Below are positions 793 to 18,986 of a stretch of DNA of 18,986 bases, one piece after another (positions within the stretch are counted from its first letter, which is position 1; the number at the start of each line of letters is the position of its first letter). The notes beneath the pieces are model-generated. The model saw only the letters and a list, made by a program, of their open reading frames with translations, made no database searches and was not told the origin of the DNA. This DNA comes from Candidatus Fervidifonticultor quintus (GTDB lineage: Bacteria > Sysuimicrobiota > Sysuimicrobiia > Sysuimicrobiales > Humicultoraceae), in contig JAVKIJ010000062.1 in assembly GCA_031459535.1 (NCBI GenBank), positions 1 to 18,986 on the forward strand. Direction: 5' to 3'. A program made the translations under genes and the position numbers.

Positions 793-818
793 GACAGCTC
801 CTCCTCGTGGGACGGTCG

Positions 819-4195: not shown

Positions 4196-5061
4196 CAGCG
4201 TTCCCCCCAGCCCAGTTTGGTACGCAGGATGCTGTAGAAGCTGTGCGGGCGTAGGCGCACCAGCCGCGTCCGCTCGGCGGCGCGCCGCGCCACCACCCGC
4301 TCGCCGGACCGCAGCGGGTGGCTCTCCTGACCGTCCACGCTGAGACAGACGTCCTCGTCGCGATCGTCCACTTCCACCGTGACGGTCGCCGTGCCCGCGA
4401 CGACTACCGGACGGGCCGTGAAGGTGTGGGGGCAGATGGGCGTGACGACGATGACATCCACGTGGGGGTGCACGATGGGCCCGCCGGCCGACAGCGAGTA
4501 CGCCGTGGACCCGGTGGGCGTAGCCACGATCACCCCGTCCGCCGGGTAAGTGGCCAGGTGCTCGCCGTTGACCCAGGTGGTCAGGTGGACCACGCGCGCC
4601 ACGCCTGCCTTCGCCACGACCACGTCGTTCAAGGCCAGAGACCGCACGCGACACCCATCCTCACCTTGGATCTCCGCCTCCAGCATCGTCCGGTCGTCCG
4701 CTGCGACCTCGCCCCTGACCACGCCCGCAAGCGCCTGAGGCAAATCGGCCAGCGGAATTTCGGCAAGAAACCCCAGCCCGCCCACGTGCACGCCGAGGAT
4801 GGGCACACGGCCTGCCGCCATGCGCGCGGCCGACAGGATCGTCCCGTCGCCGCCCAGCACCACCAGCAAGTCAACGCCGTGCACCAGTGCCGCATCCGGT
4901 GCCTCCAGATCAGGCCTCCCGGCCAGTTCCGCGCCGGCACCGTTGAGACGCACGTCCAGGCCCTGATCCAGCATCACCTGCAGGCTATCCTGCAGGCGAC
5001 CGACCGAGCGCGGCTCGACCCCGAAGCGGGCCCGATTGACGAGCACCGCGACCCGCTTCAC
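4195..5061 (-). CDS. nadK: NAD kinase
   Basis: Motifs GGDGT, GLGFL, LND and DGVIVATPTGSTAYSLSAGGP. GTG 5061 overlaps the tlyA stop; alternative start at 5076. Confidence 0.95.
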   Translation of the reverse strand: MKRVAVLVNRARFGVEPRSVGRLQDSLQVMLDQGLDVRLNGAGAELAGRPDLEAPDAALVHGVDLLVVLGGDGTILSAARMAAGRVPILGVHVGGLGFLAEIPLADLPQALAGVVRGEVAADDRTMLEAEIQGEDGCRVRSLALNDVVVAKAGVARVVHLTTWVNGEHLATYPADGVIVATPTGSTAYSLSAGGPIVHPHVDVIVVTPICPHTFTARPVVVAGTATVTVEVDDRDEDVCLSVDGQESHPLRSGERVVARRAAERTRLVRLRPHSFYSILRTKLGWGER

Positions 5062-5867
5062 GGCGCGCCACCCCACCCGGCGTGCGCCACGCGCCGGATG
5101 GCCGCATCTAGATCATCGGCAGTGGGCCCGCCGTCCTTTCGGAACAGCACGAAGAATTCCCGGTTGCCGTCCGGGCCCAGCAGGGGGGACACGGTGACAC
5201 CGTGGGGCCACAGGCCCAGCGCCGGGCCCGAGGCGATCACGCGCCGTAACACCTGTTGGTGCACCTCGGGATCACGGACCACGCCCCGAGGCGCTGCCTT
5301 GGGCCCGGCCTCGAACTGCGGTTTGACCAGCGCCACCACCGCTCCGCCGGGACGCACCAGCGCCGCGACCGCGGGCAGGATCTTGTGCAGCGAAATGAAC
5401 GAGCAGTCCACCGTGACCAGGTCCACCTGCTCCGGCAGGTCGGCCGGCGTCAGCCGCGCCGCGTGCCGGCCTTCCATGACGACCACGCGGGGGTCCTGGC
5501 GCAACCGCCAGTGCAGCAGGCCTCGGCCGACGTCCACCGCGTAGACGCGACGGGCGCCCCGTTGGCGCAGGCAGTCGGTGAAACCGCCGGTGGCCGCTCC
5601 CACGTCGAGGGCGACCGCGCCAGCCACAGCCACGCCGAATGCGTCCAGAGCGGCCGCCAGCTTGACGCCGCCGCGACTCACGTACGACGGGCCGCGCGCC
5701 CGTCGCTCCAGGCCGGCCGACTCCGCCACCAGCGCACCCGGCTTGTCCACGCGCCGGCCGTCCACATACAGCTCGCCGGCGCGGATGGCCGCTTCGGCTT
5801 GATGCCGGGTGGGCGCCAGCCCCCTGGCCACCGCCAGCAGGTCGAGCCGCCTGCGCTGAGACCTCAT
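5058..5867 (-). CDS. tlyA: TlyA family rRNA 2'-O-methyltransferase (S4 plus FtsJ-like domain)
   Basis: Motifs RLD (S4), YVSRGGVKL, LDVGAATGGFTDCL, DCSFISL, LVKPQFE and GNREF. Alternative start at 5900. Confidence 0.95.
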   Translation of the reverse strand: MRSQRRRLDLLAVARGLAPTRHQAEAAIRAGELYVDGRRVDKPGALVAESAGLERRARGPSYVSRGGVKLAAALDAFGVAVAGAVALDVGAATGGFTDCLRQRGARRVYAVDVGRGLLHWRLRQDPRVVVMEGRHAARLTPADLPEQVDLVTVDCSFISLHKILPAVAALVRPGGAVVALVKPQFEAGPKAAPRGVVRDPEVHQQVLRRVIASGPALGLWPHGVTVSPLLGPDGNREFFVLFRKDGGPTADDLDAAIRRVAHAGWGGAP

Positions 5868-5901
5868 CGGCCGGGAACTCCCCGGGCGCGCTCTTCCCAT
5901 T

Positions 5902-6840
5902 CTAGGATTCCCGGGCCAGCAGCGCCCGTGCCAGTTCCCGCAACACCGCGGCGCGCTCCCCCCATCCTTCGAGCGCGGCCACCGCGCGTTCGGTATACTC
6001 CCGCGCGGCGGCGCGAGACCCCTCGAGTCCGAACGCCGCGGGGAACGTCAACTTCGACGCCACGGCGTCGCGCCCCGCATCCTTCCCCAGCGTCTGGACC
6101 GACCCGACCTCGTCGAGCACGTCATCAATGATCTGAAAGGCCAGGCCGACGTCCTCCCCGTAGGCCGTCAGCGCGTCGAGCTGTGCCGCCGTGGCGCCGG
6201 CCAGGATCGCCCCCGACCGCACGCAGGCGCGAATCAGCGCGGCCGTCTTCCACCGGTGAATCAGCCGGACGCCCTCACGGCGATCAGGAGGCCACGCGCC
6301 GAAGCGGGCCAGGGAGGGCCGTCCCTCGGCCAGCAGGTCTAGCACCTGCCCCCCGACCATCCCCTGAGTCCCGATGGCGGACGTCACCTCCTCCATGACC
6401 CGGACGGTCCGCTCCGCCCCTGCGCTGGCCGCGTTGCGGGCAATGAGGTTGAACGCCAGCGCGTGCAGCGCGTCACCGGCCAGCACGGCGACGGCGTCCC
6501 CAAAGGCGACGTGACAGGTCGGCCGGCTGCGCCGGGTCGCTGAATCGTCCATGCACGGCAGATCGTCATGGATGAGCGAGTACGTGTGGATGAGCTCGAC
6601 GGCGCAGGCCGTGGGCATGACCACATGCGGCGCCGCACCCAGCGCCTCGGCAGACGCCAGCACCAGCAACGGCCGCACCCGCTTCCCGCCACCGAAGAGG
6701 CTGTACCGCATGGCGTCGTGCAGCAGGCCGGGGGTCGCGTCAGGCCCAGGCAGGGCGGCCTCGAGCGCGGCTTCAACCATGGGCCCTCGGGATGCCACGT
6801 AGGCGGCCAGCGTCCCCTCCGTCGCTACACGCTCAGCCAT
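5902..6840 (-). CDS. ispA: Farnesyl/geranylgeranyl diphosphate synthase
   Basis: GGKRVRP, first Asp-rich motif [14 protein letters not shown], and second motif FQIIDDVLD. Confidence 0.93.
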
Positions 6841-7174
6841 AGATCGCGTCCCGGTCGGTCCGGATCAGGAATCCCGCTTCCCCGACCGGAGCCTCATCCA
6901 GCTGGTGCACCTCCCGGACGACCGAGCCCGGTGGGCCGGTGCGCACGGCGTCGACCAGCGCCCGGACGTCGTCGGCCGGCCCCTCCACAGCAATCTCAAC
7001 CCGGCCGTCGGGCAGGTTGCGGACGAACCCGGCCAGGCGCCGCATGGCCGCATGGCGCTGCACGAAGAACCGGAACCCCACGCCCTGCACGCGGCCCGAC
7101 ACCCACAGGTGGACCCTGACCGGCGTTGAGGCGGCCCCCTCACGACTGCGGCGCGGGCTGCGATCCTGACGCAC
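6833..7174 (-). CDS. acyP: Acylphosphatase
   Basis: Signatures [10 protein letters not shown] and [15 protein letters not shown] start with GAGGA upstream, overlapping the 3' end of nusB; exact start uncertain. Confidence 0.92.
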
Positions 7175-7571
7175 GCTGTTCCTCTCGATAGATCGTCCCC
7201 AGCACGCCGTTCACGAAGCGCCCGGAGTCCTCGGTGCCGTACCGCTTGGCCAGCTCCACGGCTTCGTTGATGACCACGCCCGGCGGGGTCGCCAGGTGGC
7301 GCAGCTCATACAGCGCCATGCGCAGGATCACCCGGTCGACGCTGGCCAGGCGATCCAGAGCCCAACCGGTGAGGTGCGGGCGGATCAGGGCATCGAGTTC
7401 GGCCCGCCGCGCGGCGACCCCACGGCAGACCTCGTCGACGAACGCCCAGTCAATGGACGCGTCGCCGCGCGAGATGACCTGCAGCGCCTCGCCAATGGGG
7501 ACATGACCGACGTCGTGCTGGAAGAGCACCTTGAGGGCGACGTCGCGGGTCCGGCGGCGGTCGATCCTCAC
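7140..7571 (-). CDS. nusB: Transcription antitermination factor NusB
   Basis: [15 protein letters not shown][14 protein letters not shown], [13 protein letters not shown] and FVNGVLG. GTG 7571 chosen because the longer ORF runs through a structured non-coding region. Confidence 0.94.
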
Positions 7572-7585
7572 GGTCCCAGCGCCCG

Positions 7586-7688
7586 AAAAAGTCGACGACC
7601 ACCGAGAGGGGGCTGTCGCCCGCACCCGCGACCGCTCGTGCGGCCCGCGCTGTGCGACGCGGCAGAGCTCCATCGGTGGTCCTGCACG
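7586..7688 (-). ncRNA. Candidate structured sRNA or nusB leader RNA (long rod-like hairpin plus U-tract)
   Basis: 9-bp closing stem GACCACCGA/TCGGTGGTC (7673-7681 with 7597-7605), nested CGCAC/GTGCG and GGCCGC-ACGA-GCGGTC stems, followed by gtcgacTTTTT (7586-7596). It starts just after an extended -10 element. Confidence 0.45.
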
Positions 7689-7693
7689 TCAGT

Positions 7694-7722
7694 ATTCTAC
7701 CAACCCCACCCGCCGCCGGGAA
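7694..7722 (-). promoter_or_regulatory. Sigma70/SigA-type promoter with extended -10 (TGgTAGAAT) upstream of the hairpin RNA and nusB
   Basis: TG-n-TAGAAT at 7702-7694, with a weak -35 TTCCCG at 17-nt spacing. Confidence 0.6.
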
Positions 7723-7735
7723 CCCGTCCGGCGGC
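7712..7735 (-). terminator. GC-rich hairpin after efp (no U-tract)
   Basis: 8-bp inverted repeat GCCGCCGG...CCGGCGGC about 15 nt after the efp stop. Confidence 0.4.
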
Positions 7736-7750
7736 CCGTCACCTTCCTGA

Positions 7751-8311
7751 CTACTTCACCCGCTCCAGGTACTCCCCGGTGCGGGTATCCACCCGCACCA
7801 CATTGCCCACCTCGACGAAGAACGGCACCTGCACCACGGCGCCGGTCTCCAGCGTCGCGGGCTTGGAACTGCCCGCCGCGGTGTCCCCCTTCACGCCCGG
7901 CGGGGTGTCCACCACCACCAGGTCCACCGAGTTTGGCAGCTCCACACCGATGGGGACGCCCTCGTAGTACACGACGGTGACGACGGTGTTGTCCTTGAGA
8001 TAGAGACGGCCGTCGCCGAGCAGGTCGGCATCAATGGTCACCTGATCGAACGTCTCCTGATCCATGAAGACGTAGTGCTCGCCTTCGTGGTAGAGGTACT
8101 GCATGTCGCGGTGCTCCAGGTACGCCCGCGGGACCTTCTCCCCGGCATTGAACGTCCGCTCGGTGATGGCACCGGTCTTCAGATTGCGGATCCGCGCCCG
8201 CACGTAGGCGCTGCCCCGCCCCCGCTTCACATGCTGGGACTGCACGATGGCATAGAGGTCGCCGTCGAGCTCGACGACGACGCCAGCCCGGAAGTCGTTG
8301 CTGGAGATCAC
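7751..8311 (-). CDS. efp: Elongation factor P (Arg32 type)
   Basis: MISSNDFRAG, loop HVKRGRGSAYVR, PGVKGDT, KPATLETG and VDTRTGEYLER. Confidence 0.97.
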   Translation of the reverse strand: MISSNDFRAGVVVELDGDLYAIVQSQHVKRGRGSAYVRARIRNLKTGAITERTFNAGEKVPRAYLEHRDMQYLYHEGEHYVFMDQETFDQVTIDADLLGDGRLYLKDNTVVTVVYYEGVPIGVELPNSVDLVVVDTPPGVKGDTAAGSSKPATLETGAVVQVPFFVEVGNVVRVDTRTGEYLERVK

Positions 8312-9402
8312 GCGCTCACCTCGATCAGATCCTTGGGAAGTGTCGTCAGGTTCTCACAGCCATTGTCGGTGATGACCACCATGTCTTCAATGCGCACACC
8401 GCCCCAGCCCGGCAGGTAGACGCCGGGCTCGACGGTCACCACCGCGCCCGCGGGAAGGAGGGCCTCCTCGCGCGGTGAGAGTGTCGGACCCTCGTGGGCG
8501 GCCAGCCCGATCCCGTGGCCCAACGCGTGGCCGAACGCGTCGCCGAAGCCCGCCTGCTCGATGACCTCCCGCGCCAGCCGGTCGGCCTGGCGACCGGCAA
8601 GACCCGCCCGCAGCCCGGCCAGCGCGGCGCGCTGCGCCTCGAGCACGATCCCGTAGACGCGGCGGTGCCGGTCAGTGGCCGGTGCCGTGAGCAAGGTGCG
8701 GGTGCAGTCGGACGCGTAGCCGTCCACGACCGCTCCGAAATCGACCACGACCCATTCGCCTGGCCCGATGACCCGGGCGGTGGTCTCGGCGTGCGGCATA
8801 GCCGCGCGGGGACCCGAGGCCACGATGGTATCGAAGGAGAGCCGCTGTGCGCCTCGGCGCCGGAGCCGGTCGTCCAGGGCCGCGGCTACGTCCCACTCGG
8901 TGGCGCCGGGCCGGATCATCGGCAAGACATCCGCGAATGCCGCCTCAGCCACCCGCGCCGACCGGCGGATCGCCTCGACCTCCTCTGGCGACTTCACCCA
9001 CCGCATGCGGTCCAGGCCTTCGAGCGCCACGACCTCTGAGGGCGCGACCGCAGCGGCCAGCCTCCGGTAGAGCGCGAGCGGCAGGTGCTCCCCCTCCACC
9101 CCAACACGGCGCGCCCCGAGCTGCCGGAGCACCTCGGCGGCGGCCTCGATCAGGGGCCCCCTTGCCCGCACCGGGGAGAACCCAGGCGCCTGGACCGCGG
9201 CCTGCTCGACGTAGCGGAAGTCCACGACGAGGACGGCCTCCCCCCCGGTGACGAGGGCCACCCCGGCCGATCCAGTGAACCCGGAGAGGTACGGGACGTT
9301 GGGTGACCGCGTCAGGAGCACGGCGTCCACGCCGTCCTCCAGCATCCGGGCCCGGAGGCGCGCCAGACGCGCGGTACGCATCGGTGACGTCGCGGTTGGC
9401 AT
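8308..9402 (-). CDS. Xaa-Pro aminopeptidase, M24 family (YqhT/PepP-like)
   Basis: Creatinase-N region YLSGFTGS and metal-binding motifs DFG, SDCTRT, HALGHGIG, VEPG and RIED. Occupies the conserved position upstream of efp. Start is 9402 or 9381. Confidence 0.93.
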   Translation of the reverse strand: MPTATSPMRTARLARLRARMLEDGVDAVLLTRSPNVPYLSGFTGSAGVALVTGGEAVLVVDFRYVEQAAVQAPGFSPVRARGPLIEAAAEVLRQLGARRVGVEGEHLPLALYRRLAAAVAPSEVVALEGLDRMRWVKSPEEVEAIRRSARVAEAAFADVLPMIRPGATEWDVAAALDDRLRRRGAQRLSFDTIVASGPRAAMPHAETTARVIGPGEWVVVDFGAVVDGYASDCTRTLLTAPATDRHRRVYGIVLEAQRAALAGLRAGLAGRQADRLAREVIEQAGFGDAFGHALGHGIGLAAHEGPTLSPREEALLPAGAVVTVEPGVYLPGWGGVRIEDMVVITDNGCENLTTLPKDLIEVSA

Positions 9403-9411
9403 ACAGGCCGT

Positions 9412-9440
9412 AGCATACCCGAGCGCAGGCCGCGCCGCAA
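9412..9440 (-). promoter_or_regulatory. Sigma70/SigA-type promoter for the peptidase-efp operon
   Basis: TTGCGG-N17-TATGCT, ending 9 nt before ATG 9402. Confidence 0.6.
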
Positions 9441-9444
9441 CACG

Positions 9445-9476
9445 CAGGCGACGGGCGCTCATGCGCCCGTCGCCTG
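9445..9476 (-). terminator. Perfect 14-bp hairpin closing the pilP-pilQ-TPR unit
   Basis: CAGGCGACGGGCGC-ATGA-GCGCCCGTCGCCTG followed only by a weak tail (cgtgttg). Confidence 0.6.
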
Positions 9477-9520
9477 ATGGGATCGCCCGCCGCAGCCGGG
9501 TCAGGTCAGACCAGAAGCCC

Positions 9521-9973
9521 TCAGTTCCCGATGGGCGGGGTCTGGAACCGCGAGTGCCAGGCCGGCCGGATACGCTGCAGCATCTGGGCCGATACCTCGT
9601 CAGCCCTGGGCAGATCGCCCATCAGGAGGTAGACCTCCATGAGGGCCGCATACGCGCTCACCATGCCGGGGTCGAGCTTGATAGCCTCCTGCAGGGGTTT
9701 CTCGGCGCGGCCGAGGTACTCTGCGGCGTAGGGGGCAAGCCCCGCGCGCCACTGCCGATGCGCGTACAGGTAGGCGTAGCCGAGCCAGTACTGGGCCCGG
9801 GCATTGCGGGCGTCGGCCGAAATCGCCTGCTGGTAGGGCTGGATGGCCCGGGTGAACTCCGCCTCCTGAACGTACAGCCGCGACGTATCGAAGGCCGGCA
9901 GCGCGGGTGCCTGCCCGAACGCGGCACCCGCGGCCAGCAGGACCAGACCCAGGAGGAGCGTCAGCGTCTTCAT
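9521..9973 (-). CDS. Exported tetratricopeptide-repeat protein (possible secretin accessory)
   Basis: Sec signal MKTLTLLLGLVLLAAGAAFG-QA and TPR-like helices (AIQPYQQAISADARNARAQYWLGYAY; AIKLDPGMVSAYAALMEVY). Starts 7 nt after the pilQ stop. Confidence 0.8.
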   Translation of the reverse strand: MKTLTLLLGLVLLAAGAAFGQAPALPAFDTSRLYVQEAEFTRAIQPYQQAISADARNARAQYWLGYAYLYAHRQWRAGLAPYAAEYLGRAEKPLQEAIKLDPGMVSAYAALMEVYLLMGDLPRADEVSAQMLQRIRPAWHSRFQTPPIGN

Positions 9974-9980
9974 AGGGGCC

Positions 9981-11699
9981 CTACGGCCTCGGCGACGGCG
10001 TCGGGGCCGGGGAAGGCACCCCCGGAGTGGGCAGCACCTGCGGCGTCACCACGAAGATGACCTCGCTCTCGGTGCGGCTCACCGACGTATAGCGGAAGAG
10101 GAGCCCGACCAGCGGGATGTCACCAAGGATCGGGACCTTGATGGTCGTCTTGCGCTCTTCCGAGCTGATCAGGCCGCCCAGCACCACCGAATCACCGTTT
10201 CGGACTGTGACCGTCGTCGAAGCCTTGCGGGTGGCGATCCGCGGCACCAGGTTCGGCAGCAGCTCGCGCACCGACGAGACCTCAGGCTCGATCTTCGCGG
10301 TGATGGACCCATCGGCGTTGACACGCGGGATGATCTTGAGGATGACCCCGACCGGCTTGAAGGTGTAGGTCACCCGGCCGGCCGCGTCGGTCTGCGGAAT
10401 GGGGATCTCCTCACCGAGGTTGATGTTGGCCTCGTTCCCATTGACGACCGCCACCCGCGGCGCGGTGATAACCCGGGCCCGGCCTTGGTTGACGAGAGCG
10501 GTCAACGCTCCGTTGATGGAGAACGTCGCCGTCCCGATCGTGATCTGGTTCGGGAAGGTACCCTGAATGGTAAAGATACTGGTGGGCGCGTCGCCGGTGA
10601 GGCCCCAGCGCAGGCCCAACTGTCGCAGGTCGTCCACGTTGATGTCCACGACGCGGCTCTCGACCATGACATTGACCAGTTGCACGTCGAGGCTCGCGAG
10701 GATCTTGCGGACCTCTTCGTGCTGTGCCGGTGTGCCCACCACCACCATGTTGTTCGTCCGCGAATCTGACGTCACCCGAATCCCCGGTACCGCCGCCCGC
10801 ACCGCGTCGGCGATCTCCTTGGCATTCCCGAACCCGATGGGATAGCTGATCGTCTCGGGGCCTTCAGGTGGCGGCGCCAGCCGGTCGGCCGGCAGCACGA
10901 TCAGGTTCCGGCCCACACGGCGGAATCCCAGGTTGTTGGCCTCGAGGATGAAGCGCAGCGCCTCATCACACGTGAGGTCGAGCAGGCGGACGGTGATCTG
11001 TCCCTTCACGGACGTGTCGGTCACGATGTTGACGTTGCACACCCTGGCCAGCGCGCTCAGTACATCGGCCAGCTCGGTCGCCCTGAACTCAAGCGAGATG
11101 CGGCTCGGCTGGCCGGGAGGGGCCTGGGCTACGAGCTCCGTCGGCGCAGGCGCCGTGGATGCCTGGGCCTGCAGGGACGGCGCCGGGGCGGCAGGCGCAG
11201 GCGCAACCGCCGGGGCAGGCAGGGCCGTCGGAGCAGGCAGGGCCGTCGGAGCAACCGGGATCGCGGCCGCGTTGCCAGCCGAGAACTTCGTGACCAGGAC
11301 GGCCGGCGCGGTCGTCGCAATCGTGTACGGGACCGCCCGATCCATGTCAACAGCGATCCGGACCACGGCGGGGCTGGCCTGGAACTGCCCGGTCCGCACA
11401 CGGACCAGACCGCCCCGCCGCAGCTCGATCTGCGGCGGCACCGACGCGTCGAGGGTCGCGCCGGGCAGGTCAATCACCAGCCTGGGGGGCGACGACAACT
11501 GCAGCGTGCGGTAATTGAGCGGGCCGGTGCCCACGATCGCAAGCTGCAGGGTCTCCCCGAAGGTCTTCACGCCGACCTGCGTGATGCGCACTGGGTCGGT
11601 CTGCGTTGCGGCCGGTGCCGCCGGGATCAGCGCGAGCGCGACGACGACAGCCAGCCCGACTGTGACTCTGATGGTTGTCCTACGGTTTCGCGGCCACAT
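9981..11699 (-). CDS. pilQ: Type IV pilus secretin PilQ-like (AMIN + N0/STN + N3 + secretin)
   Basis: Signal peptide, AMIN-like LSSPPRLVIDLP...VRIAVD, N0 ISLEFRATELADVL...NIV, DSRTNNMVV, and secretin C-domain VRNGDSVVLGGL / KVPILGDIPLVGLLFR / IFVVTP. Confidence 0.9.
   Translation of the reverse strand: MWPRNRRTTIRVTVGLAVVVALALIPAAPAATQTDPVRITQVGVKTFGETLQLAIVGTGPLNYRTLQLSSPPRLVIDLPGATLDASVPPQIELRRGGLVRVRTGQFQASPAVVRIAVDMDRAVPYTIATTAPAVLVTKFSAGNAAAIPVAPTALPAPTALPAPAVAPAPAAPAPSLQAQASTAPAPTELVAQAPPGQPSRISLEFRATELADVLSALARVCNVNIVTDTSVKGQITVRLLDLTCDEALRFILEANNLGFRRVGRNLIVLPADRLAPPPEGPETISYPIGFGNAKEIADAVRAAVPGIRVTSDSRTNNMVVVGTPAQHEEVRKILASLDVQLVNVMVESRVVDINVDDLRQLGLRWGLTGDAPTSIFTIQGTFPNQITIGTATFSINGALTALVNQGRARVITAPRVAVVNGNEANINLGEEIPIPQTDAAGRVTYTFKPVGVILKIIPRVNADGSITAKIEPEVSSVRELLPNLVPRIATRKASTTVTVRNGDSVVLGGLISSEERKTTIKVPILGDIPLVGLLFRYTSVSRTESEVIFVVTPQVLPTPGVPSPAPTPSPRP
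11215..11253. repeat. 18-bp tandem repeat x2 (APTALP) in the PilQ linker
   Basis: gcaggcagggccgtcgga repeated exactly at 11215 and 11233. Confidence 0.85.
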
Positions 11700-12333
11700 G
11701 CGCTCCGTTCACTCCTCCCAGCTTCAGCTCGAAGCGTTCACCCTCTTGCTCCAAGACCACGAGGAAACGCGCCACGTCCACCACAGCGACCTTGATCTTG
11801 TCGAGAATCACGTCACCAACCCCGACAATGTACGTCTTCCCCTCGAGGCGCACGATCGCCACACCGCCGCCGTCCCCCAGCACACCCACGAGTTGGGCCA
11901 TGCTCGCTTCCTTGGGCGGAGGCGTCGGCGTCGGTGCGGGCGACGGCTGGCCTGGGGCCTGACCCGGGAACAGCGGCGGCGGGAGCGGCGCCGGAGGCGG
12001 CAGCGGCACGCCCGCCGGCCCGCCGGCCGCAGCCACCACCAGCGGCGCAAACGGATCGGGCCGCCCGGTACCCACAGCGCCAACGGCCGCTGGCAAGGGC
12101 GCAGGGCTTGGCGAGGGCGTAGCCACCTGCGGTGCCGGCATCGCGGGAGGAGTAGGCGCAGCCGGCGCGACCAGTGCCGGTGAGGCCGCAGGTGCCGGAG
12201 CCAGCGGCGGCTGCTCCGTCACGGGTACGCGGGATGGCCCCCTGGGATACAGAACGATGACGCCGATCAGCCCGACGACGATTGCGATGGGAATGACCGG
12301 GTGGGCTTTGAGGTATTCGATCGCCTTGCGCAT
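11680..12333 (-). CDS. PilP-like pilus alignment protein (TM-anchored, Pro-rich)
   Basis: N-terminal TM helix, GRPDPFAPL motif typical of PilP-like proteins, and a C-terminal beta domain QLVGVLG...AIVR...YIVGVGD. Lies directly upstream of the secretin. Confidence 0.7.
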   Translation of the reverse strand: MRKAIEYLKAHPVIPIAIVVGLIGVIVLYPRGPSRVPVTEQPPLAPAPAASPALVAPAAPTPPAMPAPQVATPSPSPAPLPAAVGAVGTGRPDPFAPLVVAAAGGPAGVPLPPPAPLPPPLFPGQAPGQPSPAPTPTPPPKEASMAQLVGVLGDGGGVAIVRLEGKTYIVGVGDVILDKIKVAVVDVARFLVVLEQEGERFELKLGGVNGAHVAAKP

Positions 12334-12421
12334 GAGGCCCCCTGATGCTGAATTCACAAGAATCCGTTTCGGAGCCCCGGCAGGCCCCAAGAGCACCTGT
12401 CGCTGTTGACAGTGCCTACCC

Positions 12422-12448
12422 TTTCGTCAGAGTGCCCGAAACTCCTGC
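12422..12448 (-). promoter_or_regulatory. SigH-like promoter upstream of pilP-pilQ
   Basis: GCAGG-agtttcgggcactctga(17)-CGAAA; the same motif occurs at 13277 and 17675. Confidence 0.65.
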
Positions 12449-12495
12449 ACAATAGACATCTGGGGCCGCCGTCATCCAGGCCAAGTCAGCCGCCC

Positions 12496-13236
12496 TCACC
12501 CCCAATACCAGCGCACGATGGCTTCGCCCCAGAACAACGCCACCAGCGCCCCCACCGCCAGGGCCGGGCCGAAGGGAATGGCGTCCTTCCGGCCCCGCAC
12601 CCGAAGGGCCAGCAGCGCGATACCAGCCAGGCCGCCCACCGTAAACGCCGAAAACAGCGCTACGGCCACCCCCGGCCAGCCCAGGAACGCCCCGATCATG
12701 GCGGCCAGCTTGATATCTCCGCCGCCCATGCCGCCCCGGCTGAGGATGACGATGACGGCGATCAGGCCGGCGGCCCCCAGCGCGCTCAGGAACGCGGGCA
12801 CCAGCCTGGTCTGGAGGCCAGCAAAGACCAGACCGGCGGCGATCCCGGGATAGCTGATCCGGTCGAGGATCAACTGATGGTCGAGGTCGATGAACGTGAT
12901 CACCAGCAGCAGAAACGCGAATGTCACGCCACCTGCCCTGGCGACCGGGTCCGGGAAGGCCACCCACACTGCCAGGGCGAGCGCGGTCATCAGGGCCTCC
13001 ACCAACGGATAGCGCGGCGAGATCCGGCCCCCACAGTGCCGGCAGCGACCGGCCAGGAGGATGTAGCTCACCAGGGGGATGTTGTCCCACGGCCGGATCG
13101 GCACGCCGCAACGGGGACACCGAGAGCCGGGGACGACGATGGACCCACCCCGGGGCACGCGGTGGATGACCACGTTCGCGAAGCTCCCGAGCACCGCGCC
13201 CAGCGCGCCGGCAACGACGAGCTCACCCGCGCCCAC
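12496..13236 (-). CDS. pilD: Prepilin peptidase/N-methyltransferase (A24 family)
   Basis: GSFANVVIHRVP, two CxxC motifs (CPRC, CRHC), DNIPLVSY, catalytic IDLD and GGGDIKL, and IPFGPAL. Start is GTG 13236 or 13245. Confidence 0.95.
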   Translation of the reverse strand: MGAGELVVAGALGAVLGSFANVVIHRVPRGGSIVVPGSRCPRCGVPIRPWDNIPLVSYILLAGRCRHCGGRISPRYPLVEALMTALALAVWVAFPDPVARAGGVTFAFLLLVITFIDLDHQLILDRISYPGIAAGLVFAGLQTRLVPAFLSALGAAGLIAVIVILSRGGMGGGDIKLAAMIGAFLGWPGVAVALFSAFTVGGLAGIALLALRVRGRKDAIPFGPALAVGALVALFWGEAIVRWYWG

Positions 13237-13263
13237 GCCTAGCACGGCTCCAGCAGGGCATAG

Positions 13264-13269
13264 AGTATA
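13264..13269 (-). promoter_or_regulatory. Possible -10 element (TATACT) for pilD
   Basis: TATACT lies 20-30 nt upstream of the pilD start candidates; no convincing -35. Confidence 0.35.
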
Positions 13270-13276
13270 CAGAACG

Positions 13277-13303
13277 GCAGGAGAATGGCGCTTCGCCCCG
13301 AAC
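13277..13303 (+). promoter_or_regulatory. SigH-like promoter upstream of the exported hypothetical protein
   Basis: GCAGG-agaatggcgcttcgccc(17)-CGAAC. Confidence 0.6.
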
Positions 13304-13370
13304 GTGGTTTCGAGGCAGGAAGCGTTCGTCGAGGACGCGGCCGGACGTCCCGCGCGAGGAGGTGGACGCG

Positions 13371-14222
13371 ATGACCAGACCTGCATGGCTGGTGATTCTT
13401 GCGCTGTTCGTCGGGCTCGGGACCCCGGTCGCCGCGCAGTCGTTCTCCGCACCCGCCCCGGTGCTCATTGTGCCAGGGCAGAGCATCGCGGCGCTGGCGC
13501 TCGGGCGTTCTGTCTCGTCCACGCTCGCGCGGCTCGGGGCGCCGGGAGAGGTGCGCACGCTCCGCGACGGCGCGCTGTACACGTTCCCGCGCTACGGCCT
13601 CAACGTCTACGCCGCCGACGGCGTCGTACGGGCCATCTCCACAACTAACAGCCTGCTGCGTACCGCGGAGGGCATCGCGCTCGGGGCGACCGTCGCCGAG
13701 GTGCGCCGGGTGTTCGGCTCGCAGTTCAGCGACGCGGTCATCGAGGGTCTGATGGGGATCGCCTACGATCAGCATGGAATCGCCTTCGGGCTCGACGGGG
13801 TGATCGTGTCGGTGATCATGGTGTATCCGCCCCGCATCCAGGCCGCGGCTCCGCCCGGCACCCAGACCGTAACGATCCCTGGCGCCGCCCCATCCGCGGC
13901 GCCCACCGGAACGCCGCCTGCGGCAGCTGCCCCGTTCTCGCCCGCCGACCAGTCACCGGCACCGGCGCCAGCCACGCCGGCTGCTGCCGCGCCCTCCACT
14001 GGTGTACCGACCCCGCCTTCCGTGGCGACCGGCCCCGCGTACCTGGACATCGGCCTCGTGGCGCTCCCGCGCGTCGACAGCCTCAAGCCCTTCTCGCCGG
14101 AAACCCAATACATGTCGGTCATCGGGTTTCTCCGATATGTCGTCTACCAGCAGACCGGTACATGGCTGACCACGGCGGAGGCCACGCGGATGCTCCAGGA
14201 GCAGCAGCGGGTTCGCCTCTGA
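13371..14222 (+). CDS. Exported hypothetical protein: duplicated BLIP/SmpA-like module, Pro/Ala linker, small C-terminal domain
   Basis: RBS AGGAGGT 7 nt before ATG 13371, signal peptide ending PVAA-QS, internal repeats IAALALGRSVSSTLARLG and EGIALGATVAEVRRVFG. The fold assignment is inference. Confidence 0.8.
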   Translation: MTRPAWLVILALFVGLGTPVAAQSFSAPAPVLIVPGQSIAALALGRSVSSTLARLGAPGEVRTLRDGALYTFPRYGLNVYAADGVVRAISTTNSLLRTAEGIALGATVAEVRRVFGSQFSDAVIEGLMGIAYDQHGIAFGLDGVIVSVIMVYPPRIQAAAPPGTQTVTIPGAAPSAAPTGTPPAAAAPFSPADQSPAPAPATPAAAAPSTGVPTPPSVATGPAYLDIGLVALPRVDSLKPFSPETQYMSVIGFLRYVVYQQTGTWLTTAEATRMLQEQQRVRL

Positions 14223-14236
14223 GGGGAACCCGCTGC
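14204..14236. terminator. Hairpin between convergent genes (probably bidirectional)
   Basis: 11-bp perfect inverted repeat GCAGCGGGTTC...GAACCCGCTGC spanning the + gene stop and adjoining the GGDEF gene stop. Confidence 0.6.
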
Positions 14237-14237
14237 G

Positions 14238-15230
14238 CTAGCTCGTTCCCTGCACGTCGGCCGCGATGACGACGTTCCCGCCCACGAGTCGCGCGCGGTC
14301 GCGGGCGGTGCGGACCGCCTCCAGCAGCTCGCGCGCTGTCGCCCCGTGTTCCGGGTGGGCCCCGATGCCCACCGACAGGCTGAGCTGACCTCGACCCTCG
14401 TCGCCGAGGGTCGGCAGGTTCTGCAGCGGCCGCAGGTCGGCCACCTCCAGCCGCAGGCGCTCGGCCACCACGTAGGCCGACTCCAGGGGGGTTTCCGGCA
14501 TCGCCAGCGCGAACTCGGTCTCGTCGGTCCGCGCCTTCACGTCCACATCTCGGGTGAGGTTGCGCAGCACCCCGGCCACGCTGGCCAGTGCCTCCTGGGC
14601 GGCGGCCTCGCCGTACCGGTCGCGGAATGCGCCGAAGCGGTCCACGTCACACACGATCAGTGACAGGTGTCGCCGGTACCGGGCCGCGCGCTTGACCTCC
14701 ACGGCGAGGTGCTCGTCGAAGTACCGCGCCGTGAACAGGTCGGTCGTGCGGTCCTGAACCGCTTGCTCGACCAGGGCCTGCTGGAGCTGCTCCAGCTCTC
14801 GCGCGTGGGCGGCGGCCCGCTGTTCTGACAGGTACTGGAACTGGGTGACGAACTCGACGATGGTGAAGTCGGTGGCCTGGGCCAGCCCCCCAAACAAATC
14901 CGCCCGATCGCCGGCATCGGGGACAATCTGCGCGCACAGGTCCGCCGCCAGGTCACGGAACACCAGGAAGCCCTGGATGACCTCGGCGGCGCCGAACCCC
15001 ATGCTCAAGCGCAACGCGGCCTCCTGGTGGATGAACTCGCGCAGGCGCGAGGGGTCGTCTGTGTCGAGGTAGGCGATCAGCTCAGCAAGATACGTGCGTC
15101 CCAGCCGGCGGAGCTCCTCCAGCGGCCGGTAGACGAACCCCGACGGCCGCATGCGGGAGAGGGCACCGGCCCAGTCGGCCGCGATGCGGTCCCGTTCCCG
15201 GTCGAGCAGACTGGCCAGGCGGCTCGTCAC
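14238..15230 (-). CDS. RsbR-N-like (RsbRD_N) sensor domain plus degenerate GGDEF domain
   Basis: Helical N-terminus (LLDRERDRIAADW...HQEAALRLSMGFGAAEV). GGDEF-fold motifs DRTTDLFTARYF, SLIVCDVDRF, AERLR and LSLSVGIG. The active-site motif reads DETEF and the I-site reads RDVD. Confidence 0.85.
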   Translation of the reverse strand: MTSRLASLLDRERDRIAADWAGALSRMRPSGFVYRPLEELRRLGRTYLAELIAYLDTDDPSRLREFIHQEAALRLSMGFGAAEVIQGFLVFRDLAADLCAQIVPDAGDRADLFGGLAQATDFTIVEFVTQFQYLSEQRAAAHARELEQLQQALVEQAVQDRTTDLFTARYFDEHLAVEVKRAARYRRHLSLIVCDVDRFGAFRDRYGEAAAQEALASVAGVLRNLTRDVDVKARTDETEFALAMPETPLESAYVVAERLRLEVADLRPLQNLPTLGDEGRGQLSLSVGIGAHPEHGATARELLEAVRTARDRARLVGGNVVIAADVQGTS

Positions 15231-15254
15231 CAGCGCCCAGCACCACCGGATCGA

Positions 15255-15908
15255 CTAGGGCGTCGCGCGTAACTGCTCGGGCAGCACGTACGTCTCGGCG
15301 CTGATCGTCGCCCGTAGCCGAGGCAGCTCTTCGGGTGCCATCGAGATCTGCCTGAGCACGATGAACCGGGGAAAGTCCTCCAGGCGGCTCAACAGGCTCA
15401 TCAGCCCCGCATAGGTCCCGGCGTATGCCAGATCCAGCCGGAAGAGCATGTACTGGGGCTGCGCTGGGGGCACTGGCTGGGCGGGCTGCGCTGGGGGCAC
15501 TGGCTGGGCTGGCTGCGCCGGACGCGGTTGGCCGGCCGGCGGCTGCGCCGCTGGGCCGCCCCCTGGCTGGTTCTGCCCGGGCCTGAGCAGATTGAGCTTC
15601 ACGCCGATCTCCTGGGCTGTCGCCTGGAGCTGGCGGATCAGGTTGGGGATCTCGCGCGCCGGGGGCAGCTTGGCCTCGATCAGCCGGATACGGTCGGCCA
15701 GGGCCTGGAACTCCCGCTCGCGTTCCTCCCGGGTGTCCGCCAGGCGCTGCAGTCGCTCCACCTCGGCCTGTTTGCTGGCGAGCTGCGAGGTCAGCCTGCT
15801 GCGCTCGGCCGTCCTGGGGGTCCACACGAGGAGATAGAACACCACGCCGATGATGGCCACCAGCACCAGCGACAGCAGAATGCGCTCGCGCGGCGTCAGA
15901 CCCCTCAC
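15255..15908 (-). CDS. pilO: Type IV pilus assembly protein PilO
   Basis: LTPRER plus TM helix, coiled coil, KLPPAREIPNLIRQL and GTYAGLMSLLSRLEDFPRFI. Follows pilMN. Confidence 0.88.
   Translation of the reverse strand: MRGLTPRERILLSLVLVAIIGVVFYLLVWTPRTAERSRLTSQLASKQAEVERLQRLADTREEREREFQALADRIRLIEAKLPPAREIPNLIRQLQATAQEIGVKLNLLRPGQNQPGGGPAAQPPAGQPRPAQPAQPVPPAQPAQPVPPAQPQYMLFRLDLAYAGTYAGLMSLLSRLEDFPRFIVLRQISMAPEELPRLRATISAETYVLPEQLRATP
15457..15518. repeat. 27-bp tandem repeat (about 2.3 copies, PAQPAQPVP) in a PilO loop
   Basis: ggctgcgctgggggcactggctgggc(g/t) at 15457 and 15484, with a partial copy at 15511. Confidence 0.85.
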
Positions 15909-16465
15909 GGCCGATCACCCCCTGTCGCCTGCGGCTTCTGGATGCGGGCAGTCACTGAGAATTTCACCACTTCGCGCAGACCAATGCGCTCGGTCTGCGC
16001 CACCGTGAGATCTACCTCGCGGAACAGCTGGCCGGCCTTCAGGTTGTCCATGAACTGCGCCACCACCGGATATGTGAGCGCATAGCCGTCAATGGCCAAC
16101 GCGCTGGCCTCGGGCACGCTCAGCGACGTCACCCAGGCGTCCTTGGGAATCAGCAGCCGGACCTCGTTTAGCACCGACGCGGCCGGGAGCTGCTGGCGGA
16201 CCAGGGCGAGGATGAGCTGCTCCCGCTCCCTGAGGGCCGCGATGCGCCGCTCGAGCTCCTGCACGCGCTCGACCTGCGGCCGCAGCTCGGCGATCTTGCT
16301 ATCGGCCTCGGCGATCTGGCGCTGGAGCCCCTCGATCTGCGCCCGGAGCATGAGGCCGAGAATGATGACCACCACCAGCGCAACGATCGGCAGGCCGTAC
16401 TCAATGATCTGGCGGCCGGGGACGCGCCTGCGAGGTACGCGCGGCAGTAGGTTGATGCGGATCAA
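15905..16465 (-). CDS. pilN: Type IV pilus assembly protein PilN
   Basis: INLLP PilM-binding motif, TM helix, coiled coil, and IPKDAWVTSL...IDGYA...VAQFMDNL. TTG start with GGAGGT RBS. Confidence 0.92.
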   Translation of the reverse strand: MIRINLLPRVPRRRVPGRQIIEYGLPIVALVVVIILGLMLRAQIEGLQRQIAEADSKIAELRPQVERVQELERRIAALREREQLILALVRQQLPAASVLNEVRLLIPKDAWVTSLSVPEASALAIDGYALTYPVVAQFMDNLKAGQLFREVDLTVAQTERIGLREVVKFSVTARIQKPQATGGDRP

Positions 16466-17565
16466 CTTACGTCACCTCCCCGCATGGCCAGGCCAACCGC
16501 CACGGCCATCGTGGGCCCCACGGCCTCGATCTGCTCGGGCGGATGCATCTGAGGGTTCACTTTGACGTTGATGAAGGGGAGTGCGACCGAGGTCGTCACA
16601 CCCAGCTCGGCGGCGATGGTCTTGTCGAGATTGCGCAGCTTGGCCAGTCCCCCGGCCAGCAGGATCTGGCCCACGACCGCGGTGCGGGAGCGGGTCTGGT
16701 AGTAGTCGAGCGACCGCCGGATCTCCGTCACTAGGTCGCCGATGTGCGGGGCGATGATGTCGTGCAGCCGCTCGGTTGTGTGGTCGGAAATGGTGGCGCC
16801 CTCCTCGAGCACCTCACCCTTCTCCTCGAGCAGGCTCTTGGCCGTGGCGGCGTCCACGTCCATCGCCTCATGGATGGCCGATAGCAGCACCTGGCCGCCG
16901 ATCGGGATGTTCCTGGTAAACCGCAGCCGCTGTCCCTCGGTGATCAGGATGTCGGAAGCCTCTGCACCCAGGTCCACCACCGCCACGGTCTGACCGTCGG
17001 CCGATATGGGCACCGCGGACCGCAGGAGGGCGAACGACTCGACGTCGAGGATACGCAACTGCACCCGCGCGGCTTCGGCCACGGCCATGATCTGATTGAT
17101 GACATCCTGCCGGGCCGCGACGACCAGGACGTCCAGCATGCGCCGGCCGTCCTCGGTGCTCTCGCCGAGGATCTGGTAGTCCATGTGGACTTCCTTAATG
17201 TTGTAGGGCAGGTATCGCTCTGCCTCATAGCGGACCGCCGCCGTCAGCTCCTGCTTCGTCATGGGCGGCACCTTGATCTCTCGCACCGTCACGGCCTGCC
17301 CGCCGACGCCCATGATGGCCCGGTCCACGCGGATCCCGACCCTGTCCAGCAGGGCCCGGACGTGGCTGCCGAGCTCCTCCGGCGCGGTAGGGACGCCGTC
17401 CCGCATCGCCATGGGCGGGCTGGGTGCTGTGCCCATATGGGTCAGGCGAAAGCCGCTCCGGTAGTTTCCTGCGAGCTCCACGACCTTGATCGCGTCGCTG
17501 CCCACGTCAATCCCGACGTGCGCCTGGGGCGCGGATGGAAAGAGTCCCATCGGGGTGTGGCTCAC
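16462..17565 (-). CDS. pilM: Type IV pilus assembly protein PilM (actin-like fold)
   Basis: VGIDVGSDAIKVVEL, EAERYLPY, VVDLGA, EIRRSLDYY, LAGG and AVAVGLAMR. Start is GTG 17565 or ATG 17550 (MGLF). Confidence 0.94.
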   Translation of the reverse strand: MSHTPMGLFPSAPQAHVGIDVGSDAIKVVELAGNYRSGFRLTHMGTAPSPPMAMRDGVPTAPEELGSHVRALLDRVGIRVDRAIMGVGGQAVTVREIKVPPMTKQELTAAVRYEAERYLPYNIKEVHMDYQILGESTEDGRRMLDVLVVAARQDVINQIMAVAEAARVQLRILDVESFALLRSAVPISADGQTVAVVDLGAEASDILITEGQRLRFTRNIPIGGQVLLSAIHEAMDVDAATAKSLLEEKGEVLEEGATISDHTTERLHDIIAPHIGDLVTEIRRSLDYYQTRSRTAVVGQILLAGGLAKLRNLDKTIAAELGVTTSVALPFINVKVNPQMHPPEQIEAVGPTMAVAVGLAMRGGDVS

Positions 17566-17648
17566 CTGCCCTCCACGAGAAGTCTGCGAGTGTCCCCCAA
17601 CAACTATTCCCGGTCGGTCGCCGTATCAGACACCTGTTCGGAGGGAGT

Positions 17649-17675
17649 ATTCGAAGACGGAAGGAGAAACCCTGC
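17649..17675 (-). promoter_or_regulatory. SigH-like promoter upstream of pilMNO-GGDEF
   Basis: GCAGG-gtttctccttccgtctt(17)-CGAAT; closest of the three to the Bacillus SigH consensus AGGA...GAAT. Confidence 0.7.
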
Positions 17676-17686
17676 AATTGGGGCTC

Positions 17687-18247
17687 TCAGGGCCCAACCC
17701 GCACCCGCCCGGTGAGCTCCACCACTACGCGCTGTTCCTGGCCCGCGAGAGTTCGGAGGACCACCGTCCCGGCGTTGGTGTTGCCGAGAGGGCTGAACTG
17801 CAGCGTGTGGTCCGCGAACGTGGTGCTGGCGAGATCGACCCCGGCCGGCATCCGGGCGGTCGCGGACTCGGCGGCGTGTTCCCTCAGCACAGGCTCAGCC
17901 GGCCACGCCGCCGGATCGGCGCAGATGGGCGAGTCGCCGGGGTCGCCTATCGCGCCCGCATAGCGGAAGATGCGGTAGGTGTCCTCCGCAGGGCTGAAGA
18001 CCACCCGGTAGCACGTGCGCTGGCTGCGGGCTTGCTGTTCTGCCGCCCTCAGGTCGCTGGCCAGGCGCCTAGCCGCGGTGGACAGCCTGTAGTGCGCAAG
18101 CACGCTGGTGCCGCCCACAGCGAGGGCCAGTACGACGGCGGCAATGACAACACTGACCAGCACCTCGGCCAGCACCGCGCCGGCCTGGTTGGAGCCAGTC
18201 CGCAATCCCGCAGCCACGCCGCCCGTACGACGCCGGCTGCGCGTCAC
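17687..18247 (-). CDS. FimT/FimU/GspH-like minor pilin
   Basis: Class III signal NQAG^AVLAE (Glu+5), LSTAARRLASDLRAAEQQARS, and C-terminal LQFSPLG...GTVVL...VVVELTGRVR. GTG 18247 overlaps the upstream stop. Confidence 0.85.
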   Translation of the reverse strand: MTRSRRRTGGVAAGLRTGSNQAGAVLAEVLVSVVIAAVVLALAVGGTSVLAHYRLSTAARRLASDLRAAEQQARSQRTCYRVVFSPAEDTYRIFRYAGAIGDPGDSPICADPAAWPAEPVLREHAAESATARMPAGVDLASTTFADHTLQFSPLGNTNAGTVVLRTLAGQEQRVVVELTGRVRVGP

Positions 18248-18864
18248 GAGCCCAGGACCTCCGTCCACTGGGGCCGGTCCAGCAGGGGGTCACGCGGGCT
18301 GAAGATGTCCGATCGGTCGGGGGTGCGAGGGGCAGCATAGCCCTCGGCATGCTGCGCAGGCTGGATGACGACCGGCCAGCCCCGGTAGGCTCCCGACGAG
18401 CGCGCGTAGCTGCCTGTCCAACCTGAAGGGCTGCCCCCCAGCCGCCAGTCCCACGCAGTGCACGGGGCGGTCTGGGGGCTGTGGAGGCAGACTGTCTTCC
18501 TGGCGTTGCCCACGCGGGCCGCAGCCAGCACGGCCGAGTCGAACCACATGGTGTACGACTCGGGCACCTCGGTCTCCGAGGCGCACGCTGCCGGCGCCCC
18601 GGATGGACGCACCGCGATCAACGCGTAGAACTCGCCGATGGTGGCCCCATCCACGCCGGTCACGCGCACCGGGGCTCCTTGGTGGCCGAACCGCAGATAC
18701 GCCGTGGTGGCAACCCTCATCCAGTCGGTGGCCGCCAGGTCGAGCGGCGGGCCGAGGGGCCAGGCGTAGGCTGTGATGACGTCCACGGTACTGAGCGCTA
18801 GGTCGGGCGGCGTCGCGCCATCTGCGCGGCAGATCCGCCGGATCTGCTCGCCGGCGGCCCCTAG
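18244..18864 (-). pseudogene. 3' fragment of a probable PilX-like minor pilin interrupted by an IS
   Basis: The frame stays open upstream of GTG 18786 (LGAAGEQIRRICRADG...) up to the CTAG junction with no start or RBS. It contains ARVGNARKTVCL and a C-terminal QWTEV reminiscent of PilX-like proteins, and is translationally coupled to the FimT-like gene. Confidence 0.6.
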
Positions 18865-18897
18865 CAGGATGCTGAAAAACGCTCCATATCTTGTGGC

Positions 18898-18926
18898 TTC
18901 ACAAAGTGCACGCCTCTGCGTATAGT
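18898..18926 (+). promoter_or_regulatory. Sigma70-type promoter for the transposase
   Basis: TTCACA-N17-TATAGT. Confidence 0.7.
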
Positions 18927-18974
18927 CTGGTCAAAGCGCAGCCGCCAACGATCTCTTCGAAGGAGCAGACGGCG

Positions 18975-18986
18975 ATGCGTGGAGAT
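18975..18986 (+). CDS. Transposase N-terminus (partial, MRGD...)
   Basis: RBS AAGGAG at about 18960-18965, then ATG CGT GGA GAT. An MRG start is typical of DUF772-type IS5 transposases. Only 4 codons are visible. Confidence 0.6.

Follow-up and report, generated by a model that had tools for sequence, protein, structure and literature searches.

A genome-wide bipartite promoter class, most likely read by a SigH orthologue, includes three pilus-locus units of Candidatus Fervidifonticultor quintus

Introduction

Candidatus Fervidifonticultor quintus, a member of the uncultured hot-spring and soil phylum Sysuimicrobiota (CSP1-3), carries a pilus locus on an 18,986-nt stretch of DNA, contig JAVKIJ010000062.1 of assembly GCA_031459535.1, to which we refer as the window. 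Autotrophic enrichments containing Ca. Fervidifonticultor are described in PMC11604079. The same bipartite word, GCAGG-N17-CGAA, stands before three units of this locus: pilM, a PilP-like gene followed by the secretin gene pilQ, and a divergently transcribed gene for an exported protein. This arrangement raises the question of what kind of element the word represents, which sigma factor would read it and whether it forms a switch dedicated to the pilus machine. The original prediction, made from the DNA letters, took it for the promoter of a SigH-like sigma factor and the three units for a pilus/competence regulon, possibly serving DNA uptake. Here we report that the three pilus units are members of a broad, genome-wide promoter class, most likely read by a SigH orthologue, and are not a dedicated pilus or DNA-uptake switch.

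SigH is the early-sporulation and transition-state sigma factor of Bacillus and a competence sigma factor in staphylococci and Listeria. In PMC4754846, the sigma-H consensus is given as (A/G)(A/C)AGG(A/G)WWW-N11-12-(A/G)(A/G)(A/C)GAA(A/T) and sigma-H drives the comG and comE genes of Listeria; for S. aureus, sigma-H control of com genes is reported in PMC3486894.

Results

GCAGG-N17-CGAA matches the window exactly three times, with a mean of 0.24 matches in dinucleotide-preserving shuffles, none of which (0 of 200) reached three. The gene calls around all three copies place each of them between genes and in the orientation of the unit that it precedes (Table 1), so that the positions and the 17-nt spacing of the original prediction are borne out. 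The first box reads GCAGG(A/G) in all three sites, and the base following CGAA is A at the pilP-pilQ site, C at the exported-gene site and T at the pilM site. They are also the only intergenic AGG-N18/19-GAA matches on the contig. No promoter of pilD was recognised.

We scanned the whole assembly (3.1 Mb in 138 contigs, 68.7% G+C, 89% complete), in which our own codon-log-odds gene caller, a crude one, defined 3,061 genes and left 7.3% of the DNA as intergenic. Over all DNA, with coding regions not separated, GCAGG-N17-CGAA had 45 matches and showed no enrichment, the counts being dominated by codon-phase periodicity. In intergenic DNA, GCAGG-Nx-CGAA gave 4, 3, 3, 2, 1, 23, 27, 9, 1, 4, 4 and 4 matches for x from 12 to 23, and the word thus rose above background, with 23 matches at N17 and 27 at N18 against 1-4 at most other spacings. 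The shorter word AGG-Nd-GAA gave 92, 95, 96, 91, 183, 216, 96, 79, 92 and 107 intergenic matches for d from 14 to 23: only d = 18 and d = 19 were enriched, with an excess of about 210 sites. AGG and GAA form the essential core, and changing any of the G, A and A of GAA removed the spacing peak. Around this core, G and C are preferred before AGG, A or G after AGG and C before GAA, while T is modestly enriched at +2/+3 after AGG and mildly after GAA. A weight matrix scored 134 sites above 2, compared to 8.4 expected from control spacings. A gene in the same orientation lies no more than 350 nt away from 112 of the 133 non-redundant sites, with a median of 50 nt between GAA and the start codon. 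In gaps between co-directional genes, 54 sites are oriented with the downstream gene and 3 against it; the remaining sites lie in divergent gaps (60), in convergent gaps (2) and at contig edges (14). Flanks and spacers are diverse among the sites, which therefore do not constitute a repeat family. This pattern of spacing, orientation and position is what marks a set of promoters recognised by a single sigma factor.

A second word, TTG-N20/21-TAnnnT, of the sigma-A type, was also enriched (110 and 66 matches against about 20 at other spacings), and the genome therefore contains two large promoter classes. Housekeeping promoters in the window had been described in the original prediction as SigA-type. 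That type is well represented genome-wide, but within the window the description finds little support: a sigma-70 consensus scan returned one site, no more than in shuffles (TTCACA-17-TATAGT, 18898-18926 on the plus strand; none in 1-9999). This site precedes a plus-strand gene whose start is at about 18976 and which extends beyond the end of the window.

When the published sigma-H consensus (PMC4754846) is counted from AGG to GAA, it spans 18-19 nt, which are the two spacings enriched here, and the flanks agree. The -10 box and the 11-12-nt spacer of the class both fit this consensus, and so does the -35 box, in which AGG is invariant by construction and the W-rich tail is weak. We searched the assembly for a sigH (spo0H-like) gene and found an orthologue on contig C59 (3800-4438) that passes three NCBIfam equivalog models, NF006148 with a score of 367.6 (cut-off 208), NF006145 with 352 (212) and TIGR02859 with 351 (294.8). 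Its gene context is cysS-rlmB-x-sigH; the placement of cysS and rlmB before sigH is the arrangement of Bacillus. Applied to 14 control genomes, TIGR02859 was passed by B. subtilis alone. We compared 31 genomes of the same order (the relatives; they include one unpublished genome, G013, which enters in part into the pil, sigH, rpsA, clpC, comEC and Spo0A counts; for the pil-locus sites the counts are also given without it), and sigH was above the cut-off in 28 of them, with uniform scores of about 350 bits. SigH is 86-100% identical among its best 120 homologues, and the matches listed are all close relatives from within the phylum; across the order, PilM identity drops to 37-40% where SigH stays near-invariant. 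The PDB yielded one distant sigma-H chain, 3mzy, at 98 bits. The DNA-recognition regions of SigH are presumably very similar to those of B. subtilis SigH. The sigma-70 family comprises 11 genes in this genome; besides sigH they encode RpoD, three SigB/F/G-type factors, one of FliA/WhiG type, several extracytoplasmic function (ECF) factors and one unclassified member (contig C84). The consensus promoters of the SigB/F/G, FliA and ECF types are unlike AGG...GAA. The boxes and spacing that equal the sigma-H consensus and the sigH orthologue in the genome support the SigH-like part of the original prediction, and SigH is the most likely reader of the class.

We assessed the conservation of the sites among the relatives, of which 29 out of 31 have pilM orthologues. 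In the 260 nt before pilM, an AGG-N18/19-GAA site was found at 26 of the 27 loci with upstream DNA (25 of 26 without G013), a count that omits a partial match (L113) and a second paralogue (L114). Conservation upstream of orthologous pil genes, on which the original prediction could have failed, is thus found. Genome G029 has no such site, and one locus had only 18 nt of upstream DNA. Counted by eye, GCAGG is kept in 25 of the 26 pilM sites and CGAA in 21, and the spacers vary freely. The site after pilD and before the PilP-like gene is present at 17 of the 18 loci of the same family with DNA at that place (16 of 17 without G013), many relatives having T in place of C before GAA. On the corresponding strand, the exported-gene site was found at all 19 loci of the family (18 of 18 without G013); the exported-protein gene shares the promoter element with the pil units, as had been proposed. 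Both counts for the pilD region omit L134, a second copy in G007, and L143, a partial match. In the other families of the order, synteny near pilD differs and no conserved pilP or exported-gene site was seen. The spacer of the pilP-pilQ promoter is conserved across the genera of the family, unlike those of the pilM and exported-gene promoters, and an overlapping operator or second signal may exist there.

In public records of the phylum, which overlap the genomes of the order and are not independent of them, the pilM-upstream site occurs at 42 of the 55 loci whose upstream DNA extends to 50 nt or more; the 13 loci without a site are mostly from soil clades. The closest of these loci are from Ca. 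Fervidifonticultor, and farther ones from Geohabitans, Calidihabitans, Thermofontivivens, Tepidifontimicrobium and Sysuimicrobium. Beyond the phylum, six of 13 distant pilM loci (from Clostridia and other Bacillota metagenome-assembled genomes, Omnitrophota and Xenobia) gave GGAGG or ribosome-binding-site-like matches, which are uninformative, and at one locus from Xenobia a promoter-like site stands at -80. Sites before two housekeeping genes are also kept across the order, at 23 of 28 loci for rpsA (omitting L250 and L257) and at 25 of 26 for clpC (omitting L277, L285, L286 and L287), the omitted loci being contig-end cuts or partial; some rpsA matches open with GGAGG and could be weaker calls.

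The class comprises about 130-200 intergenic sites. Of the 112 sites with a score above 2 that lie no more than 350 nt from a co-oriented gene, three precede the window's own units; for the other 109 we annotated the first downstream gene, 56 by NCBIfam and 53 by Pfam at E <= 1e-12. Housekeeping genes are among them: rpsA (ribosomal protein S1), clpC, two HU/IHF-type genes, nuoA, pdhA (pyruvate dehydrogenase E1 alpha), yajC, cspA (cold-shock) and genes for a GlmU-like protein, ThyX, RNase PH, FabI and a class-I tRNA synthetase. Envelope functions are represented by an FtsL/FtsB-like protein, SLH proteins, a TonB-dependent receptor and enzymes of the cell-wall amidase and NlpC/P60 types, transport and metabolism by about 10 ABC substrate-binding proteins and many metabolic enzymes, and regulation by GntR, LacI and IclR regulators and two sigma genes, one of SigB/F/G type (C83:5917-6693) and one ECF (C55:11499-12149). 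These two sigma genes lie directly behind high-scoring sites, which hints at a sigma cascade. The TonB-dependent receptor and an SLH/porin-like protein (C39/C60 region; L039:5582-7384 and L039:1-1653) share the promoter type with the secretin operon.

The check for sites before further pilus and DNA-uptake genes gave a negative result: no scoring site was found upstream of pilB-pilC-pilT (contig C93), the PilB-like genes (C107 and C12), the PilT-like genes (C100) or dprA (C122). In this assembly, which is 89% complete, no comEC was found, probably owing to an assembly gap; ComEC occurs in 25 of the 31 genomes searched, including all five searched genomes of the same genus, and at six comEC loci examined in relatives none had a site within 300 nt upstream. 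Spo0A was found in none of the 31 genomes searched, while the B. subtilis control passed. Compared with competence regulons of the Staphylococcus or Listeria type, the class thus shows neither the motif before DNA-uptake genes nor the size of a small dedicated regulon. Because the gene set is broad, pilB, pilC, pilT, dprA and the examined comEC loci of relatives have no scoring site and Spo0A was found in none of the 31 genomes searched, this is not a pilus/competence or sporulation regulon, and the pilus/competence part of the original prediction fails. The three pilus units are members of a broad promoter class.

The locus itself encodes PilM, PilN, PilO and the secretin PilQ, whose domains are those of the type IVa PilMNOPQ subcomplex (Table 1). 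Judged from purine runs resembling ribosome-binding sites, the true starts are likely ATG 12333 for the PilP-like gene, ATG 13371 for the exported-protein gene and GTG 17565 for pilM. The synteny of pilD with pilM holds across the order. The GGDEF gene follows pilO after a gap of 25 nt and, on the strength of this short gap, is probably co-transcribed with pilMNO; its placement suggests a link between cyclic di-GMP (c-di-GMP) and the pilus machine. For the tetratricopeptide-repeat (TPR) protein encoded after pilQ, its position makes a PilF/PilW-like role possible. The PilP-like protein, whose gene sits before pilQ, has one transmembrane helix, a Pro-rich linker and a C-terminal beta-rich domain, and a Pfam search gave no match at E <= 1. 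The exported protein has an N-terminal domain of about 130 residues, a Pro/Ala-rich linker and a conserved C-terminal part; it too had no Pfam match at E <= 1, and the Atlas gave weak leads only, to DUF7738 and DUF4309 (scores <= 0.90, TM <= 0.46 by query). Its homologue adjoins pilD at 18 of 19 loci of the family, the 19th having no DNA at that place. Since a secretin, a TonB-dependent receptor and an SLH/porin-like protein are encoded, the gene content points to an outer membrane. The other half of the window (1-9462) has a Bacillota-like gene order with pepP-efp, nusB, ispA, a TlyA/RrmJ-type methyltransferase gene, nadK, recN and pyrG.

Table 1. Genes and promoter sites of the pilus locus, in window coordinates; domains were assigned by Pfam profile search unless stated otherwise (PWM, position weight matrix)
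Feature	Position	Strand	Evidence and remarks
GspH-like minor pilin gene	17687..18268	-	PF12019 GspH, E 4.8e-09, and weak N_methyl; upstream of the pilM promoter
Promoter before pilM	17650..17675	-	GCAGGG...CGAAT; AGG-N18-GAA; PWM score 2.5; between the GspH-like pilin stop (17687) and the pilM start (17565)
pilM	16462..17565	-	PF11104 PilM_2, E 3.2e-62
pilN	15905..16465	-	PF05137 PilN, E 2.8e-14
pilO	15255..15908	-	PF04350 PilO, E 9.3e-11
GGDEF diguanylate-cyclase-like gene	14238..15230	-	PF00990 GGDEF, E 1.8e-26
Exported-protein gene, no known family	13362..14222	+	Signal peptide in the translation; divergent from pilD
Promoter before exported-protein gene	13277..13302	+	Exact GCAGG-N17-CGAA; PWM score 3.5; divergent from pilD; between the pilD start (13245) and the exported-protein start (13362, more likely 13371)
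pilD (prepilin peptidase)	12496..13245	-	PF06750 and PF01478
Promoter before PilP-like gene and pilQ	12423..12448	-	Exact GCAGG-N17-CGAA; PWM score 3.4; between the pilD stop (12496) and the PilP-like start (12396, more likely 12333)
PilP-like gene	11680..12396	-	Assigned by position and architecture only
pilQ secretin	9981..11699	-	PF00263 Secretin, E 2e-45, with Secretin_N, AMIN and STN
TPR gene immediately 3' of pilQ	9521..9973	-	TPR_11 and TPR_19

Discussion

The explanation that we favour, and consider probable, is that the three sites are ordinary members of the genome-wide bipartite class and that this class is read by the SigH (Spo0H) orthologue. RNA polymerase with SigH would recognise (G)(C)AGG(A/G) at -35 and (C)GAA(t) at -10, and transcripts would start a few bases past GAA. 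Three units would be produced from the locus: pilM-pilN-pilO, probably with the GGDEF gene; the PilP-like gene and pilQ, probably with the TPR gene; and the divergent exported-protein gene alone. SigH would then provide, alongside RpoD, a second and broad means of promoter recognition in a non-sporulating lineage bearing an outer membrane.

Several observations weigh against this explanation. The gene calls are crude, though the contrast between spacings is independent of them. In this genome, neither the W-rich tail of the -35 box nor the T that follows GAA is pronounced. The class is far larger than the SigH regulon of B. subtilis, and another sigma factor could read part of it. sigH was not found in two relatives, G007 and G010, and is split by a frameshift in a third, G017, while all three keep the pilM motif. 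In G007 the gene preceding sigH is cut by a contig end just where sigH is expected (L296, C62, 4-543), and the absence is probably an assembly gap; the G010 assembly is 78% complete; in G017 (L288, C1, 1325-1962) the remainder of the split gene is 97% identical. The G017 frameshift and the G007 contig end look like assembly problems rather than gene loss. Finally, one metatranscriptome (assembled contigs, containing 0.40 of the sampled words) covers all 30 bins of 9000-18986 at low depth, but its contigs resolve no starts or ends and cannot prove transcription. A 6137-nt 'skip' joint with a 20-nt side in these contigs was disregarded as probably foreign.

Some of these observations lend substance to the idea that the promoter class is real but read by another sigma factor, either one of the three SigB/F/G-type factors or the unclassified C84 gene product. 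The genome offers candidates among its 11 sigma-70 family genes, the regulon is unusually large and holds housekeeping genes, and the motif persists in the three relatives in which sigH is undetected or frameshifted. Yet the boxes and spacing coincide with the sigma-H consensus (PMC4754846), SigH is near-invariant across the phylum and the sigH gap in G007 coincides with a contig end. The consensus sequences known for SigB/F/G, FliA and ECF factors, being unlike AGG...GAA, also argue for SigH, and we regard another reader as unlikely. That the motif is not a promoter at all, but a transcription-factor site, a dispersed repeat or an accident of composition, could be argued from a 69% G+C genome in which short G/C-rich words are common, and from the fact that the transcript starts at the sites are predicted ones. 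Such origins fit poorly with a sharp enrichment at two adjacent spacings only, an orientation bias of 54:3, a consistent distance to start codons, diverse flanks and spacers, and boxes that are conserved while spacers diverge; we give them hardly any credence.

Several facts speak for a dedicated SigH-like regulon co-ordinating the pilus machine for DNA uptake. All three units carry the motif and keep it in relatives, ComEC and DprA occur in the lineage, and sigma-H drives comG and comE in Listeria (PMC4754846) and reportedly acts likewise in S. aureus (PMC3486894). The genome-wide distribution of the motif largely refutes such a regulon: 134 sites stand before diverse genes, rpsA and clpC carry conserved sites, and none of pilB, pilC, pilT, the other PilB/PilT-like genes, dprA or the six comEC loci of relatives has one. 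We consider it very improbable.

With SigH as the most likely reader, the class can be set beside known sigma-H systems. The sigma-H promoters of the Bacillota (B. subtilis, Listeria and S. aureus) have the same two boxes at the same spacing, according to the consensus in PMC4754846, and the orthologous sigH likewise sits in a cysS-rlmB context. The host here, however, lies outside the classical Bacillota and its order has no detected Spo0A (0 of 31 genomes), the A/T-rich parts of the boxes are weak, and the regulon, which takes in housekeeping genes, is much wider. With the competence genes comG, comE and coiA of Listeria and S. aureus the locus shares sigma-H-type promoters in front of a pilus-type machine; the targets there are Com pseudopilus and DNA-channel genes, whereas here they are pilMNO, pilP-pilQ with its secretin and the exported-protein gene, and pilB, pilC, pilT, dprA and the comEC of relatives are without the motif. 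PilM, PilN, PilO, an AMIN/N0 secretin, PilD and a GspH-like pilin are encoded together, as in the diderm PilMNOPQ systems of Pseudomonas, Thermus and cyanobacteria. Unlike in those systems, the cluster is split into promoter-bearing units, with a GGDEF gene, the exported-protein gene and pilD inserted, and the PilP-like protein matches no Pfam family. We know of no description of sigma-H-type promoter control of diderm PilMNOPQ systems. A literature search found no paper that treats CSP1-3 together with a sigma factor, and the words pili, pilus, sigma, sporulation and outer membrane do not appear in the main text of the paper that defined the phylum. The grammar is that of known sigma-H promoters; the differences lie in the host phylum, in the lack of a detectable Spo0A in the genomes searched, in a PilMNOPQ target of the secretin type and, most of all, in how broad the class is and in the housekeeping genes that it contains.

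These results provide a clean computational case of sigma-H grammar together with a near-invariant sigH in an uncultured phylum, and they open both the ancestral role of SigH and the way in which regulation is wired in diderm Terrabacteria to direct tests. More tentatively, we suggest that SigH of the Sysuimicrobiota may be a second general-purpose sigma factor, with more than 100 promoters before rpsA, clpC, HU, nuoA and envelope, sigma and pilus genes, and not a sporulation or competence sigma factor. If this is true, SigH had a broad vegetative or transition role before the Bacillota recruited it to endospore formation and competence. At the pilus locus, pilMNO, pilPQ and the gene for the conserved exported protein are predicted to be expressed together with much of the SigH-dependent gene set. 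The class also supplies a promoter model that can be used to annotate transcription units in genomes of the Sysuimicrobiota, a phylum whose public records mostly carry the label Armatimonadota.

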